From positions 1-29,295 of IMG/VR virus record IMGVR_UViG_3300033562_000279: a stretch of DNA of 29,295 bases, one strand, 5' to 3'. Position 1 is the stretch's first letter. Each line of letters begins with the position of its first letter. The position numbers were made by a program, and so were the translations under genes. Under the pieces are notes generated by a model. That model was not told the DNA's origin and did not search any database. It saw nothing but the letters and a program-made list of their open reading frames with translations. Source of the DNA: a virus (taxonomy: Duplodnaviria; Caudoviricetes). Below are positions 1,028-29,295 of the stretch, piece after piece.

Positions 1028-1044
1028 ATTGTAAACTAAAAATA
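1028..1044 (+). promoter_or_regulatory. Putative phage late promoter, copy 1 (ATTGTAAACTAAAAATA)
   Basis: Exact 17-mer ending 1 nt before the protease ATG at 1046. Confidence 0.8.
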
Positions 1045-2073: not shown

Positions 2074-3012
2074 ATGATTAATAAAGAAATTTGGGTAAAA
2101 GATTTTGCAGCTAACTTGTACGATTCAAAAGAATGGTATAATATTGGTAAAAATCACAGTGAATATGTATTGAACTCTATCGTTCATATTCCACAATTTG
2201 TTGCATCAGTTGTTCCTACCAAAGTTACAAATAGTACAACCCTCCCGGTTGCTGCTACTCGTCAAACATTTGATGATTTGACTTATTCAGTTGAAATGCT
2301 TGCTATGGCACCTCAATATGTAACTAACATCGATGCTGCTGAAGCAAGTTTTGATACACGTACTGCTTTAATGCAAGATGGTATTTCTTATTTGCAACAA
2401 GCAATGAGTATTGAAATTGCTGATAAATGGGCACCTATTGTATCAGGATCGGTTGCTTTGACTACCGGTACATCAACACGTTCTAACATTTACGGTAACA
2501 CATCTATTAAAAAACTTACATTCAATGATGTATTGCTTGCTAAATCTTCGTTGATTCGTAATACTAAAAATGTAGATCTTGATAAATTGTATATCATTGT
2601 TGATTCTGTTATGTATAATGACATTGTTACAATGAGTGAATTCAATGATAAATCTACATTGGTTGGTGATACAGCAGTTGTTAAAGGTTTGGTTGGTGAA
2701 ATCGGTGGTTTGAAAGTTATTCAGAGAGCTATTGGTCTTCCTTATGTATCTCAATATGTTAAAGCTGCCGTTGATTATACAGATGGACACGCTGCAACTA
2801 TGTTTAGTGCTGCCTTACTTGTAGCAGGAGACTATGTTTCTTATGCTTATGGTACTATGGAAAACGGTCAGATTATGATGGGTGTTACTCCTTATGCACA
2901 AGGTTATTATTCGGATGTATTGCAAGGACACACCAGAGTTGGTGCATCTCCGAAATATAAAGCTGTTTCGAACGTTGTTAAAGGTGTATTTGCTATCGTT
3001 GAAGCTAAGTAA
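2074..3012 (+). CDS. Major capsid protein
   Basis: 312 aa after the protease; MINKEIW start, VHIPQ and GLVGEIGGLKV segments typical of HK97-fold capsids; followed by a terminator. Confidence 0.85.
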   Translation: MINKEIWVKDFAANLYDSKEWYNIGKNHSEYVLNSIVHIPQFVASVVPTKVTNSTTLPVAATRQTFDDLTYSVEMLAMAPQYVTNIDAAEASFDTRTALMQDGISYLQQAMSIEIADKWAPIVSGSVALTTGTSTRSNIYGNTSIKKLTFNDVLLAKSSLIRNTKNVDLDKLYIIVDSVMYNDIVTMSEFNDKSTLVGDTAVVKGLVGEIGGLKVIQRAIGLPYVSQYVKAAVDYTDGHAATMFSAALLVAGDYVSYAYGTMENGQIMMGVTPYAQGYYSDVLQGHTRVGASPKYKAVSNVVKGVFAIVEAK

Positions 3013-3027
3013 TCAACAAAATAATAG

Positions 3028-3060
3028 AATAGAACATCTGAAATATGGTGTTCTATTTTT
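3028..3060 (+). terminator. Intrinsic terminator after the capsid gene
   Basis: AATAGAACA/TGTTCTATT stem followed by a T run. Confidence 0.75.
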
Positions 3061-3095
3061 AAAATATTAAATTAATTAAATAAAAACATAATCAA

Positions 3096-3728
3096 ATGAG
3101 TCTTTCTAATAACATTATTTATAAAGTAGTAAATAAAGTAAATGGTAAGATTTATATTGGCAAAACTACTAAATTCAAGAGGAGAAAACAGCAACATATA
3201 ACAGATGCTTTTAACGGATGTAATTATGTATTTCATAAAGCAATTAGAAAATATGGTGTTGAACAATTTGAATGGAATATTATATGGGAAGGTGATAATG
3301 AATTATTAAACGAAATGGAAATATATTTTATTAAGTTATATAATAGTTATTATTCTTATGAAAAAGGATATAATATGACTTTTGGGGGAGATGGTAACAC
3401 TGGTCTTAGAACTGATGAAACAAAGAGAAAAATATCTGAATGTAAACGTGGAATTAAACATTCTGCTGATACTAAAGATAAAATATCTAAAAGTTGTAAG
3501 GGAATAAAAAGAAGTGATGAAACTATTGAGAAATATAGAATTGCTAATATTGCTGAAAAGAATCCAAACTTCAATCATAAAACATATAACTTTATACATA
3601 AAGATGGTACAGAAGAGTTTTGTGAAACTGTAAACTATATGAATAAAACATATAATTGTAATGGGTTTAGTAAAATCACTACAAATGCAAGACAATCATA
3701 TAGAAAATGGAAAATTAATAATAATTAA
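3096..3728 (+). CDS. Free-standing GIY-YIG homing endonuclease with NUMOD3-like repeats
   Basis: IIYKVVNKVNGKIYIG motif, conserved E and GYN; repeats RTDETKRKISE, HSADTKDKISK, RSDETIEKYR. Confidence 0.9.
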   Translation: MSLSNNIIYKVVNKVNGKIYIGKTTKFKRRKQQHITDAFNGCNYVFHKAIRKYGVEQFEWNIIWEGDNELLNEMEIYFIKLYNSYYSYEKGYNMTFGGDGNTGLRTDETKRKISECKRGIKHSADTKDKISKSCKGIKRSDETIEKYRIANIAEKNPNFNHKTYNFIHKDGTEEFCETVNYMNKTYNCNGFSKITTNARQSYRKWKINNN

Positions 3729-5943: not shown

Positions 5944-5960
5944 ATTGTAAACTAAAAATA
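5944..5960 (+). promoter_or_regulatory. Putative phage late promoter, copy 2
   Basis: Exact ATTGTAAACTAAAAATA right after the terminator, upstream of the chaperone/tape measure block. Confidence 0.8.
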
Positions 5961-13161: not shown

Positions 13162-13184
13162 AAAATAAATAAACACATATAGAT

Positions 13185-13235
13185 TTTGGATGTGATGATG
13201 TCACTACATTTGGATTCCGTTCCATCACATCCAAA
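13185..13235. repeat. 13-bp perfect inverted repeat (hairpin)
   Basis: TTTGGATGTGATG ... CATCACATCCAAA with a 25-nt loop. Confidence 0.85.
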
Positions 13236-13278
13236 GATATGTTGAATGATATAACAAATCAATAGTGATTTAACAAAC

Positions 13279-13570
13279 AATCCATAAAGGATAATTAATA
13301 AATAATATAGATTTATATATAGAAATAATGATAAATAAAGACTTGTTACTTATGATGCACACTTTTACATCGAACTTGACATAAAGTGTATTAATCTTTA
13401 CTATGATAAAATATTATAACTTTTAAAATCTTGAAACATTGATTAAATGGTATTTTCTTATAAAAAAATATAAAAGCGTGAATCATAAGTAACAAGATTA
13501 AATTATAATATAAATTATATAATCTATAATATATTCTATAAATTATCTTATAAATTATCCTTTATGGATT
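13279..13570. repeat. Long nested imperfect inverted repeat; candidate replication origin or structured RNA
   Basis: 18-bp perfect arms 13279-13296/13553-13570; 8-bp arms 13306-13313/13521-13528; 26-bp arms with 2 mismatches 13342-13367/13471-13496. Confidence 0.85.
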
Positions 13571-13678
13571 ATCATTTAGATTAACCTTTATTTCAATTCA
13601 TTTCAATTGTATTTGATTTATTATTTTATCCTTGAAGAGGATTACTTGTTAATAACATTTTATTTAAGCAATCAAACC

Positions 13679-13739
13679 ATTATTCATTGAATCCGATATA
13701 GCGTAAGCGTATATAATCGGATTCAATACAATGAATAAT
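13679..13739. repeat. Hairpin with apical GCGTAAGC
   Basis: ATTGAATCCGAT (13686-13697)/ATCGGATTCAAT (13716-13727); alternative outer pair ATTATTCATTG/CAATGAATAAT. Confidence 0.8.
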
Positions 13740-13747
13740 CAATATAT

Positions 13748-13781
13748 GAAAATACCTTGACTATTATCATAATCAAGGTAT
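13748..13781 (-). terminator. Probable terminator of the polymerase gene
   Basis: ATACCTTGA/TCAAGGTAT stem ~30 nt past the stop, followed by a short T run on the minus strand. Confidence 0.6.
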
Positions 13782-13810
13782 ATAATTAATAAAAACAGAT
13801 ATGCTTTAAT

Positions 13811-15058
13811 CTACATTAGTTTATAGTCTTTGAAACCTTGTTTATCAAATTCATTTTTTAATGTTTTTAACATAACATCATAATCTGATTTTTTTACATA
13901 AATTGAATCGTGAACAGGAAGACAATCAATTCCATTTTTAGATAAATGTTTATATGTTGAAATGAACACATCAGATTCAGTTGATTGTAATTGAATTGCT
14001 AATTCATTTTTATTTTCTTTTTTCAATTCTTTAATTGCATTGTATATAAACGGAAAATCATTTTTGAAAACAATTTCAAATGCAGCAGAACCTTTATTGC
14101 CTTTAAACAATAATTTAACAAATTGCACCTTACTATCATTTCTGTTAGTTATTGCCTTTGTAATCATTTTAAGTTCTTTACTACAATATTCATTGTATAG
14201 ATTATCACCTTTTAATTCAGTATAACGAGTTAAACAATAATTATAAATATCATCATTTTTAATAACATCAAATAATCTAATAACTTCTGAATTTACCGGA
14301 TATAATTTCAATAGATAAGAAGCTAAGAAATAAGGTTGTGATGATTTTAAATCCGAACATACTAATTGTTCACCATTGATATAACAAAACTCTCTCAATT
14401 CTCTTTTTACTAAATTGAATGTATTGAATATCCTGCCTGTTTTTTCATCTTCAACAATGATCCATTTCTTTTCATTAATATCATTAATCATACGATAGTA
14501 ACAATTGAATTTATTAGTATTGAATGAACCGTCAGATTTAATAAAATAAGTATTAGTATCTAAGTTAGCAAACCAATTTAAAGCAGCAGAATAATCAAAT
14601 TCAATACTGTCTAATGTATCAAGTAATTCAGGAAACTTTTCTTTATTTAATTTATATTCTTTTTCTAATTTAACATAAGTGTTAAAATCATTGATGATTA
14701 TTTCTTCCATTGTGTAAATATCTTCTAATTCAATTTTAGTCATAAACGAATCAGCAATCCAGTAATCTTTTGATTTTTCACCAACAATGTATTGATTATC
14801 TGTTTCAATGATATTATGATCTAATAATGCAGATACAATATCAACATAGTTTCTACCTAATAAATGTTTAATATATTCTGCTTTTAATCTTGCTCTTTCG
14901 TATCTAATATCTTTATTGGTATAAGAACAACTTTGTCGTTCAATCAATTCTAAGAATAAAAAGAATTTCTCTCTTTGAAGTTTTCGAGAATAAACATCTT
15001 TTAATAAAGAATCTACTTGCGAAGTAAATGCTAATGAAAATTTAATTGTGTGTGTCAT
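13811..15058 (-). CDS. Minimal family-A-like polymerase (TV-Pol-like), 415 aa; start revised to MTHTIKF
   Basis: GRIFN, motif A (LVCSDLKSSQP), DIY, motif B (RNDSK), LQSTES, motif C (VHDS); no exonuclease domain; possible winged-helix N-terminus; A-rich leader before the ATG at 15058. Confidence 0.8.
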   Translation of the reverse strand: MTHTIKFSLAFTSQVDSLLKDVYSRKLQREKFFLFLELIERQSCSYTNKDIRYERARLKAEYIKHLLGRNYVDIVSALLDHNIIETDNQYIVGEKSKDYWIADSFMTKIELEDIYTMEEIIINDFNTYVKLEKEYKLNKEKFPELLDTLDSIEFDYSAALNWFANLDTNTYFIKSDGSFNTNKFNCYYRMINDINEKKWIIVEDEKTGRIFNTFNLVKRELREFCYINGEQLVCSDLKSSQPYFLASYLLKLYPVNSEVIRLFDVIKNDDIYNYCLTRYTELKGDNLYNEYCSKELKMITKAITNRNDSKVQFVKLLFKGNKGSAAFEIVFKNDFPFIYNAIKELKKENKNELAIQLQSTESDVFISTYKHLSKNGIDCLPVHDSIYVKKSDYDVMLKTLKNEFDKQGFKDYKLM

Positions 15059-15123
15059 TGTTTTGTTAGTTTGATTGTTAATAAATATTCTGTAGTATTT
15101 TTTAAAATGATGTGTTAATTTAA

Positions 15124-15163
15124 GTAGTATAAATAGAAGTAGGATACTACGCCTACTTCTATT
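15124..15163 (-). promoter_or_regulatory. Hairpin/H-type pseudoknot in the polymerase leader
   Basis: Minus strand AATAGAAGTAGG-CGTAGTAT-CCTACTTCTATT-T-ATACTAC: 12-bp stem whose loop GTAGTAT is complementary to the following ATACTAC. Confidence 0.6.
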
Positions 15164-15256
15164 CTTCAAACTAACACTAAACAAAAAACTTTATAAAAAT
15201 GAAAGACTGTCAAGATGCTTTCATTTAATATAAATATAAATAAAAAAAAATAAAAT

Positions 15257-15394: not shown

Positions 15395-15706
15395 TTAATG
15401 AAAATCAGAAATATTAGGAACATTCTGAATAAACTCTTTTTTATCAAAGAAATCATTCAATATTAATCTACACTCATATCTTTTACATTCTACTCTATTT
15501 CTGCTATTATAAATAGGTATTAACACTATATCATCATTGGTGTAATTATGTTCTCTAATCCACTTGTATAGCTTCTTATTGTATTGCTTAGATTTTTCAT
15601 TAAAGCAATCTGTTTTATGTTGATATTCTCTTCTTGATAAATTATTGGTCATTCCAACATATCTGATAATACCTTCAATTTCTATTTTATAGCACACATA
15701 CATCAT
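15395..15706 (-). CDS. Small GIY-YIG nuclease
   Basis: VCYKIEIEGIIRYVGMTNNLSRREYQH, later conserved E and QN; catalytic domain only (103 aa). Confidence 0.8.
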   Translation of the reverse strand: MMYVCYKIEIEGIIRYVGMTNNLSRREYQHKTDCFNEKSKQYNKKLYKWIREHNYTNDDIVLIPIYNSRNRVECKRYECRLILNDFFDKKEFIQNVPNISDFH

Positions 15707-16004: not shown

Positions 16005-16484
16005 ATGTTAAGCGAAAAACTTTTAAACAAAATTAAACAGAATACTACAACTGTTGAAGAAAATGAAATTAAAGGAAGAAATCTATTTATAGATAACTTT
16101 GTAAAAAAACAATTACCTGATTACAAAATTATAGATACTGAAATCAATGACAGAAATGATTTGTTTTTAGTCAATGATGATAATATATTAATAGTAGAAG
16201 TGAAATACAGAAATGAAAATTATATTAACGGTACTATGTTATTAGAAGAAAAGAAATATAATGGATTATTAAACATTAAGAATCAAATATCAGAAGTTTG
16301 TAATAAAACTGTTAAAATATTATATTCATTCGTATTTGATAATAACATAGTTAAAATAAGTAATCTGAATGATAATATAAATAATTATAAATGGACTGAT
16401 CAACAACATCAAAAAACACAATGTTTCAGTCAAGAAAAAATAAATAAAAAAGTAACATTTTTAACTGACTTTAAATACTTCTAA
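16005..16484 (+). CDS. PD-(D/E)XK family nuclease
   Basis: E...DRNDL...IVEVKYR catalytic pattern followed by LLEEKKY. Confidence 0.75.
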   Translation: MLSEKLLNKIKQNTTTVEENEIKGRNLFIDNFVKKQLPDYKIIDTEINDRNDLFLVNDDNILIVEVKYRNENYINGTMLLEEKKYNGLLNIKNQISEVCNKTVKILYSFVFDNNIVKISNLNDNINNYKWTDQQHQKTQCFSQEKINKKVTFLTDFKYF

Positions 16485-16556: not shown

Positions 16557-17012
16557 ATGAAAAAGAAAAGAGAAATAGATAATGATCCAAAGATATATGA
16601 TTTATTTAAAAATAATCCATATCAATTTAATAAAGAAATGCAATTAATAATACACAGTACTGTACCTGAATTAAGATATGATTTCGATGATGTATGGTTT
16701 GATGTATTTATTAAACTGTATAAGAAGAAAGAAACAATAAAAGAAAAAGGTATTATTAACTATGCAATAACAGCATATTCAAGAACATACTATAACTATC
16801 AGCAAAAGAAGTTAAAACCTAAACACAATCATATATCAGTTAGTTTAGATGAAATTCAATTTCATTGTATTATTGATGCTGGTTATGATGAACGTGGAAT
16901 AGGTAATACCTACCATACTTTTGATGATATATCATTTAAACGCAAAGTACATAATTTAGCAGAACCACCATTCAACATAGATTTAATAGAATACAATCCA
17001 CTTAAAAGATAG
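16557..17012 (+). CDS. Divergent sigma-factor-like protein (ECF-type region 2, no evident region 4)
   Basis: FDDVWFDVFIKLY...IINYAITAYSRTYYNYQQK resembles ECF sigma2 (EDLVQEVFIKLW...WL..IA.N...D..RK), followed by VSLDE; last gene before the late block. Confidence 0.6.
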   Translation: MKKKREIDNDPKIYDLFKNNPYQFNKEMQLIIHSTVPELRYDFDDVWFDVFIKLYKKKETIKEKGIINYAITAYSRTYYNYQQKKLKPKHNHISVSLDEIQFHCIIDAGYDERGIGNTYHTFDDISFKRKVHNLAEPPFNIDLIEYNPLKR

Positions 17013-28050: not shown

Positions 28051-28896
28051 ATGGCATTCACAGTAAGAACAATAGATCAAATATTTCAAGAATTATTACT
28101 TGAAAAACAAACATTATCATCATTAAATAGTTTAGTTTCAGGTGGAATAACTGATGAAAATAGTTTAATAACTGCATTAGAAACAGGTAAAGTTCCTGAT
28201 TGGATATTGTGGTTATATAATTATGCAGTTGCAACAAATCTAACTGATATTGCATCATTAAGTGCTATAACAGAAATAGAAACAATACTATCAAATGAAA
28301 AGATACCTACTGCAAATTGGTACATAATGAAAGCAAAAGAATTTCAATATGGTGATTTTGTAATGGTAGATCCTACAACTTATAATGTTGGTTATGAAAC
28401 AATAGATACAGCAAAACAAATTATATCAAGTTGCACTATTCAGGATGCAAATAAATTGATAATGAAAGTAAGAAGAAAAGATACTGATATATTATCAAGT
28501 GATGAAAAGACTGCATTTGAATCTTATCTATTTAATATCAAATGTGCCGGTACACAAATATTAGTACAGAATTTTAATGCTGATTTATTAACTTTGAATA
28601 TGACTATTGTTTATAATGGAACATATTCATTAGTAACAATAAAATCAGCAGTTGAAAATGCCATCAATTCATATTTATCTAATATAGAATTTGACAGTAA
28701 ATTTAATACAACTAAGTTAGTAGATAATTTACAAGCATTATCAGGTGTTATTGATCCACGTTTTGATTCAGCAACAGCAATAGATGAATTGGGCAATACT
28801 GTTTCATTTGTTCACGAATATTTAAGTTATGCTGGATATATGAAAATTAATCCTTTATTTCCATTGAGTTCTACAATCACTTATATTGCAAGATAA
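28051..28896 (+). CDS. Baseplate wedge protein (P2 gpJ / Mu gp47-like)
   Basis: RTIDQI, WY..KAKEFQYGD, F.SYL..IK.AGT, AI.SYL..I.F...F....LVD.LQ...GV, AGYM. Confidence 0.8.
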   Translation: MAFTVRTIDQIFQELLLEKQTLSSLNSLVSGGITDENSLITALETGKVPDWILWLYNYAVATNLTDIASLSAITEIETILSNEKIPTANWYIMKAKEFQYGDFVMVDPTTYNVGYETIDTAKQIISSCTIQDANKLIMKVRRKDTDILSSDEKTAFESYLFNIKCAGTQILVQNFNADLLTLNMTIVYNGTYSLVTIKSAVENAINSYLSNIEFDSKFNTTKLVDNLQALSGVIDPRFDSATAIDELGNTVSFVHEYLSYAGYMKINPLFPLSSTITYIAR

Positions 28897-29295
28897 TGAT
28901 AGACATAGATTATAGACAAATAGCAGATACTATACCTGATACATTACGTAGAACACCAATAAGAAAAGATTGGTTATATCTTGATATTAGTGCAGTTGAT
29001 AGTAAATTTAATGAATTTCAAACTGAATTTGATTATTATAAATTCTTAGCATCACATAATTATCAAGTTATGAGTATAGAACATTTGTTGAATAATATAT
29101 TACAACCATCAGGAAGTATATATTTAACAGATGGTCTATGGTATGATGAAACATATCTTTATTTCAACGGTGATGCAACAGCAACAGAAACATATTTATT
29201 TAACACAGGAGAATCAGGATCATTAGATACATATCTAAGATTTAATTCTGAATATGAACTTGACCAATTTGATTTCACTGTAAATGTTCCTGCAT
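28896..29295 (+). CDS. 5' part of putative baseplate wedge/tail protein (164 aa once circularised, ends at 236)
   Basis: TAATG overlap with the J-like stop; MIDIDY...IPDTLR...WL...HNYQV.SIE.LLN; open to the window end. Confidence 0.75.
   Translation, partial: MIDIDYRQIADTIPDTLRRTPIRKDWLYLDISAVDSKFNEFQTEFDYYKFLASHNYQVMSIEHLLNNILQPSGSIYLTDGLWYDETYLYFNGDATATETYLFNTGESGSLDTYLRFNSEYELDQFDFTVNVPA
29155..29295. repeat. Terminal direct repeat, right copy
   Basis: Identical to 1-141. Confidence 0.95.

Follow-up and report, generated by a model that had tools for sequence, protein, structure and literature searches.

A predicted winged-helix family-A polymerase as the sole recognisable replication gene of a small tailed phage

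At the sensitivity of family scans, the stretch of phage DNA analysed here (the window, 29,295 nt) contains only one recognisable replication gene, a 415-aa open reading frame at positions 13811-15058 of the minus strand. Its product, P0001, is predicted to join a winged-helix domain to a minimal family-A polymerase and represents a real, well-conserved, and apparently undescribed subfamily of a known kind of enzyme, a subfamily that is very large and without a name. We consider it somewhat probable, at slightly better than even chances, that P0001 is a one-protein origin-binding initiator-primase that hands over to the host replisome.

The phage genome and its gene content

Positions 1-141 of the window return as a direct repeat at its end (29155-29295, plus strand). 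Because of this terminal repeat the window is a complete circular phage genome of 29,154 bp. Family scans identify a myovirus with a Mu-type portal, terminase, prohead protease, capsid, DUF2586 sheath, tape measure and baseplate genes, as well as two GIY-YIG nucleases, whose free-standing genes are located at 3096-3728 and 15395-15706. The host is probably a Bacteroidota bacterium, as judged by the taxonomy of the homologues. No replicative helicase, primase, SSB, second polymerase, or integrase was detected when 35 ORFs of the window, part of an ORF spanning the circular junction, and a 53-aa ORF were compared with Pfam and PHROGs. The sequence-only reading of this DNA had seen neither helicase nor primase, and the scans did not reveal a hidden conventional replisome either. 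About half of the scanned ORFs are without any family match, and because many of these are small, a highly divergent small initiator may remain hidden. A 159-aa ORF without family match (16005-16484, plus strand) has, by eye, a PD-(D/E)xK-like pattern and could be a resolvase. The ORF across the circular junction (28896-29295 and 142-238) follows baseplate J, and its first 133 residues have no PHROG match. An Rfam scan of the window gave one match that was judged to be due to chance.

Fold of P0001

All 415 codons of the gene are translated without internal stops, and the AlphaFold model of the protein has a pLDDT of 91.9. Residues 136-415 (13814-14653, minus strand) model as a thumb-palm-fingers core, for which a wide structural search gives Klenow with Z 12.0 (rmsd 4.0, 243 aligned residues), the apicoplast polymerase with 11.8, Pol theta with 11.5, and T7 DNA polymerase with 11.4. 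RNA polymerases are also found (mitochondrial RNAP, Z 10.0; T7 RNAP, 9.7; N4 RNAP II, 9.3). In a Foldseek search of the PDB with the P0001 model, the top rows are all family-A DNA polymerases (best E 9e-5). The thumb consists of two short helices, and there is no space for an exonuclease domain. Residues 1-113 (14720-15058, minus strand) are predicted to bind DNA or the origin. Their model matches the winged helices of DnaD-NTD (Z 6.7), Fur (6.5), and the 'MDR initiator' 4pta (6.0), and there is a weak match to ScpB (E 0.042). At the generic wHTH level of Z 6-7 such model-based matches identify a fold, not a function. Intact family-A motifs, a missing proofreading domain, and a possible winged-helix N-terminus had all been read from the sequence before: the motifs are where they had been placed (D236 at 14351-14353, VHDS at 13904-13915, RxxxK present), the palm fold is borne out by the Klenow match, the 415-aa model leaves no room for proofreading, and the winged helix is supported at the model level. 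Pfam gave nothing above the cut-off for P0001, and a sequence search of the PDB gave no match for P0001 or A1. PHROG 4756, of unknown function, matches P0001 with E 1e-6.

A hybrid active site

Conservation was determined in 151 non-redundant homologues (from 160 distinct among 183 collected), and the active site was aligned motif by motif with the fetched sequences of E. coli Pol I, T7 DNA polymerase, and T7 RNAP; the coordinates below are on the minus strand. The β-hairpin arginine R209 (14432-14434; TGR; Pol I R668, T7 RNAP R425), D236 of motif A, and H383 of motif C are present in 151/151 homologues, and D384 in 150/151. Motif A, D236-LKSS-Q241 (14336-14353), was the pattern by which most loci were fetched, so its invariance in this set is partly built in; it is also invariant in all 27 proteins found by a word search. 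Motif B, R306xxxK310 (14129-14143), is aligned with RRSAKAINF of Pol I in an HMM alignment and has R306 in 135 and K310 in 149 of the 151 homologues. Motif C is V382-H-D-S385 (13904-13915), as compared to IHDS in T7 RNAP and VHDE in Pol I, and ends on S in 122, A in 17, C in 7, G in 4, and F in one homologue, but never on Glu.

Y272 of DIY (14243-14245) is found in all 151 homologues and corresponds to Y571 of T7 RNAP, while Pol I has H734 and T7 DNA polymerase H506. E361 is also kept in 151/151, and its counterparts are D787 of T7 RNAP and Ala852 of Pol I, in a register based on the equivalence of H784 and Q849 that we presume. The acidic residue after H784/Q849 is, on the same assumption, common to P0001 and the N4, T7, and mitochondrial RNAPs. 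At the ribose gate (Pol I E710, T7 RNAP G542) 150 of the 151 homologues have Gln. Position 318 (Pol I Y766, T7 RNAP Y639) is F in 92 and Y in 59, and at the position of Pol I F762, 79/151 have F or Y while P0001 has Val (V314). As far as the alignments tell, the active site is thus a hybrid: Y272, E361, and HDS follow T7 RNAP, whereas the Gln gate and the Phe of 92/151 homologues do not, so that of the T7-like features DIY and HDS are present and the Gly gate and Tyr639 are not. The E710Q variant of Klenow is a slow mutator, and the exchange does not favour the binding of rUTP (PMC3715850). Given the hybrid signatures, this behaviour, and the precedent of CCPol, which makes DNA primers with E710 and F762, the choice of sugar cannot be read from the sequence. 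RNA priming in particular is uncertain because Gln241 occupies the E710 gate, which is Gly in RNA polymerases, and because E710Q does not favour rUTP.

Relation to described polymerases

The sequence-only reading had labelled P0001 as TV-Pol-like, and the anatomy fits. Like TV-Pols (PMC2579912), it has a minimal family-A core of two-helix thumb, Arg hairpin, palm, and fingers without a nuclease domain, and an extra N-terminal domain; the Bacteroidetes members of both are located near integrase/resolvase and restriction-modification loci. The model of P0001 also matches a Zamilon replication protein (E 1.7e-4). However, the N-terminal domain of TV-Pols was predicted to be all-helical in 2008 (PMC2579912), whereas that of P0001 models as an α/β winged helix. 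The link of one TV-Pol subset to D5 helicases is not seen with P0001, as there is no D5 helicase neighbour or fusion in the window or in the 101 of 126 multi-locus neighbour clusters scanned, and P0001 differs in being the sole replication gene of tailed phages. The genome of Ma-LMM01, in which a TV-Pol has been listed, gave no match to the family profile at E<=1 with a loose first look.

The closest confirmed described relative had been missed before and is divPolA2. The family profile aligns remotely with the representative AUR84708 (hhalign E 2.5e-5, 170 columns, 16% identity), and proteins of Barba and Aeromonas phages match the P0001 model in Foldseek with E 1e-8 to 1e-5. As described by Yutin et al. 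2024 (PMC11348598), divPolA2 has a similar size (430 aa), an N-terminal globular domain, and a palm, and lacks an exonuclease, but it is found alongside a regular PolB in phages of 80-130 kb, whereas no second polymerase was detected in the window; its role is left there between repair polymerase and RNA polymerase. In addition, the gate residue of divPolA2 is still Glu (DFKAFE) and its motif C reads FDE, where P0001 has Q241 and HDS. We file P0001 as TV-Pol-like in anatomy and as sister of divPolA2, with the TV-Pol label resting on anatomy and the structural match.

An A-family palm is also used as primase on mobile elements by the CCPol-MP/PolA-SSB enzymes, which need an OB-fold partner and a helicase (PMC7581432, PMC10061031). 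P0001, in contrast, has a fused winged helix and no helicase, and an SSB-like partner was not recognised by the family scans of the window. CCPol-MP further differs in keeping E710 and F762 (Q241 and V314 in P0001), and the 2020 paper gives CCPol as the only TV-Pol-like enzyme assayed by then (PMC7581432). N4 RNAP II, T7 RNAP, and mitochondrial RNAP share DIY and HD[S/C] with P0001 but differ from it in their gate residue, which is Gly, and in their much larger size.

Family size and distribution

The family profile was built from 137 sequences and searched against 1.84 billion representatives. At E<=1e-30 it matches 5,287 of them, which stand for clusters of 50% identity, and at E<=1e-3 the number is 13,417. 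A literature search found no description of this polymerase subfamily, and there is no Pfam model for it; against the PDB the best match of the profile is N4 RNAP2, which is weak (E 0.011). Homologues are found in ~30-kb myo- and siphoviruses with different virion modules, in chromosomes of Bacteroidota (integrative islands) and Ignavibacteria, and in jumbo phages of 595-735 kb. A plasmid search gave no match for P0001 and one for a distant homologue. Because a Hymenobacter plasmid encodes a homologue plus a separately annotated Rep, and because the 595-735-kb phages carry homologues, the family does not always provide the sole initiator.

Within four ORFs of the gene at 164 loci (redundant loci kept), the neighbours include an integrase cluster at 64, HTH_17 at 42, and a resolvase at 15; restriction-modification genes are also present. 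The scan covered 101 of the 126 multi-locus clusters, the 478 single-locus clusters being outside it. Integrase/resolvase and restriction-modification contexts have been read as replicative mobile elements for one TV-Pol subset (Iyer 2008, PMC2579912). Among 106 of the 195 ORFs of the gene-carrying records G002-G005 and G007, the virion ORFs being left out, the scan found neither a primase nor a replicative helicase, an SSB, or a further polymerase.

Some loci have features of their own. The homologue at L171:7917-9110 (LR756501.1, a 735-kb phage) shares its neighbours with contig L074 and is therefore likely to belong to the conserved genes of this jumbo clade. A conserved 140-154-aa thymidylate-synthase-like fragment (E 1e-8 to 1e-12) is situated near the polymerase gene in siphoviruses (L004:6924-7385, L007:12409-12867, L179:4270-4692). 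L177:1-2356 (G003) is a serine-integrase prophage beside a host gene that resembles comM/YifB by eye.

Replacement of the gene in relatives

Relatives were collected by sheath and terminase, and 40 whole records were searched, four of which are positive controls. The gene is present in four of the 36 other records, and most of the negatives are fragments. Where terminal repeats are present, the gene occurs in G010 and G016 (which score identically and probably encode one and the same protein) and is absent from G011, G015, G018, G024, and G026; the replication slot was examined in two of these five, G011 and G015. In the window and G010 the gene is next to the small-gene/terminase block, with a GIY-YIG gene in between.

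G011 (31,087 bp, sheath 53% identical) lacks the polymerase gene, and its virion genes are laid out as in the window. The slot is taken by a 609-aa protein, located between non-coding gaps of 868 and 733 nt just before a block of a 144-aa ORF, sigma, a 100-aa ORF, and TerL. Invariant SF2 motifs (DE-H, TAT, Q--GR-R) are seen in an alignment of 107 sequences, the Pfam helicase matches are all sub-threshold, and the model resembles viral helicases as well as 'replication origin-binding proteins' (E 1e-37 to 1e-8). This SF2 helicase is apparently the only replication gene of the complete 31-kb phage. Its gene (L358:4202-6031) has 561 homologues and is without a Pfam family. G015 (29,762 bp, sheath 33%), a distant relative, encodes an HTH_36/Phg_2220_C initiator (PHROG E 5e-44) followed by a Toprim-DnaB primase-helicase (E 3.5e-76). 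On the basis of these two genomes, three unrelated solutions in one phage group suggest that replication initiation is the shared job.

The leader and the downstream non-coding region

The leader of the gene (15092-15180, minus strand) forms a putative switch. The arms of its hairpin are at 15152-15180 and 15115-15143, and the loop (15144-15151) is complementary to two downstream copies of ATACTAC (15124-15130 and 15092-15098). It folds better than shuffles (z -4.6), and leaders are structured (z <= -2) in eight of 14 loci. By a rule that was set after looking (hairpin <= -10 kcal/mol, loop complement of >= 6 nt downstream, p <= 0.02), the feature is found in three of nine strong-hairpin leaders (L001, L004, L008), in none of 66 other genes of the same phages, and in none of 61 other homologues, and the window with p 0.032 misses the cut. 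The pairing partner ends 2 nt before the start codon in L004 and L008; in G010, which was examined afterwards, one segment is complementary to two downstream copies, the second of which abuts the AUG. Because the sequences differ among the relatives, the shared feature would be alternative pairing at the translation start. Plasmid rep genes and gene 32 of T4 are controlled in a similar way. A classical H-type pseudoknot with the proximal copy is unlikely in the window, as just 1 nt would span a stem of 12-13 bp; the distal copy could form one, or the leader could adopt an alternative fold. The leader pseudoknot that had been proposed before is therefore better described as an alternative-pairing switch.

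Downstream of the gene, a 634-nt AT-rich non-coding region (13177-13810) with nested inverted repeats (13342-13370/13468-13496 and 13256-13301/13548-13593) and hairpins is a candidate origin. It folds far better than shuffles, with z -7.0 as RNA and -10.3 as DNA. However, only the window and L001 are structured here among 14 loci folded, the region of the window cannot be aligned to G001 or G016, and iterons were not found in it. A conserved downstream RNA or origin is not supported; it is plausible that the region is an origin for this phage only. Of the compact replicon module suggested earlier, the palindromes are real, but the module is overstated, as they are not common to most relatives. 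Elsewhere, candidate origins are seen in L014 downstream of position 1401 (a direct repeat of ~100 nt, ~600 nt apart) and in L001 at 2700-3100 (AAT-rich tandem repeats).

An initiator-primase or another enzyme

As an initiator-primase, P0001 would bind the phage origin with its winged helix, most plausibly at the AT-rich inverted-repeat region beside the gene. The palm would synthesise a short de novo primer, for which RNA or a mixed strand is likelier than pure DNA, and host Pol I/Pol III and a host helicase would extend it, while the leader switch would limit the amount of protein made. Such a hand-over of the primer to host enzymes has a precedent in ColE2-type Rep, a leader-controlled protein that binds the origin and makes the primer for host Pol I, although with an AEP primase fold and not with a family-A palm.

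Several observations argue for this reading, first of all the replacement by an origin-binding-like SF2 helicase in G011 and by initiator plus primase-helicase in G015. P0001 is the sole replication candidate in the window, as are its homologues among the scanned ORFs of G002-G005 and G007, and the island context (integrase 64/164, HTH_17 42, resolvase 15) is as in Iyer 2008. The best PDB rows for the winged helix include DnaD-NTD and a plasmid initiator, and CCPol-MP provides an A-family primase as precedent (PMC7581432, PMC10061031). An RNA or mixed primer is suggested by Y272, E361, and HDS, which follow T7 RNAP, and by the weak N4 RNAP2 profile match. Counting against the initiator-primase are that the replacement is based on two genomes, of which G015 is distant, that the candidate origin is structured in 2/14 loci, that the winged-helix matches are generic, that there is no recognised SSB-like partner, and that Gln241 is at the ribose gate. 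The sequence-only reading had left the choice between an initiator-primase and a minimal RNA polymerase. The former has gained comparative support from G011 and G015, its activity being proposed from sequence and model; the latter retains its RNAP-type signatures but is weakened for this phage by the sigma-like ORF described below.

That P0001 is a minimal single-subunit RNA polymerase for phage transcription whose winged helix reads the promoter is improbable in our view. Late genes of the window are preceded by the motif TTGTAAACTAAAA (1029-1041, plus strand; also at 5945, 17029, 21235, and 27739; five matches versus 0.54 expected). Each copy is just 2-35 nt before the start codon of a late gene; some late mRNAs would be nearly leaderless. 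G001 carries TTGTAAACT and G002 another motif. It is likelier that this motif is read not by P0001 but by a 151-aa sigma-70 region-2-like ORF (16557-17012, plus strand), a likely late sigma factor that precedes the terminase genes; its feature score of 0.95 to a Sigma70_r2 cluster is a lead only. The same slot holds a sigma factor in G002 (E 3e-4) and in G011 (E 8e-9; weak pairwise BLAST of E 0.031 with the ORF of the window), and G011, which lacks the polymerase gene, shares the virion layout of the window. Homologues of the sigma-like ORF were not found in eight relatives, in a search without positive control. With this ORF, and with sigma factors in the same slot of relatives, late transcription in the window would not require P0001.

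The motif RATATATA speaks for transcription. It is located ~26-28 nt before the start codons of 8/42, 10/38, 5/37, 9/39, 7/30, and 8/40 genes in G002-G007, respectively, with shuffled means of 1.0-2.2, and no sigma factor was seen in the ORF scan of the siphoviruses G003-G005, in which the virion ORFs were left out. This enrichment in gene-carrying phages, with G003-G005 being without sigma, remains the main unexplained observation. However, RATATATA is not enriched in the window (2/35), G001 (1/23), and the chromosomal loci (10/956 versus 17.3 shuffled), where a host-wide promoter of this kind was not seen, and in several relatives a copy is visible, by eye, ahead of the polymerase gene as well. 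The motif is common to the unrelated small phages G002-G007 and to jumbo-phage contigs among L171, L024, L025, and L074. Concerning the enzyme, Y272 and E361 in 151/151 homologues, the motif C without Glu, the N4 RNAP2 profile match, and the Z scores of mitochondrial (10.0) and T7 RNAP (9.7) would fit an RNA polymerase, which has also been raised for divPolA2 (Yutin 2024, PMC11348598). Against it, the gate is Gln and not Gly, the Y639-equivalent is F and not Y in 92/151, and DNA polymerases score higher structurally (Z 12.0-10.7). P0001 also has no insertion at the site that we take to be that of the T7 RNAP specificity loop.

It is similarly doubtful that P0001 is a self-sufficient primase-polymerase copying the whole genome by strand displacement without hand-over. 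The polymerase motifs are all intact, the bulky gate residue and the F or Y at position 318 (151/151) fit dNTP use, and TV-Pols have been predicted to be dual primase-polymerases (Iyer, Abhiman, Aravind 2008, PMC2579912). However, a proofreading domain, helicase, SSB, and processivity factor are missing, the thumb is two short helices, and the relatives' substitutes are initiator or helicase genes without polymerase. An accessory role in repair, gap filling, defence/counter-defence, or as selfish cargo, with the phage replicating by host factors or an unrecognised small initiator, also seems unlikely: homologues do occur beside a normal Rep, in jumbo phages, and near restriction-modification genes, the gene has a GIY-YIG neighbour in the window, G001, and G010, and divPolA2 is accessory to PolB (PMC11348598), but the gene is kept across ~30-kb myo- and siphovirus modules in which, integrase and cargo aside, there is no other large non-virion gene, and its slot is taken over by replication genes in relatives.

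Significance

In a complete phage, no replication gene other than this relative of the TV-Pol-like enzymes is detectable, and recognised initiator modules take its place in relatives. One protein and about 2 kb of DNA are therefore enough to test what it does, and a sequence-specific primase of 415 aa would be useful as a tool. The mixed Pol I/T7 RNAP active site bears on the divergence of RNA and DNA synthesis in family A. A bolder idea, which we regard as fairly unlikely, is that P0001 is the smallest single-subunit RNA-synthesising family-A enzyme, with 415 aa and with sequence specificity provided by the winged helix. It would serve small phages and islands as origin primase and might also transcribe from RATATATA promoters in sigma-less siphoviruses and jumbo phages. 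If this were true, Pol I and T7 RNAP would be linked by a living intermediate, a family of more than 5,000 clusters without a name.
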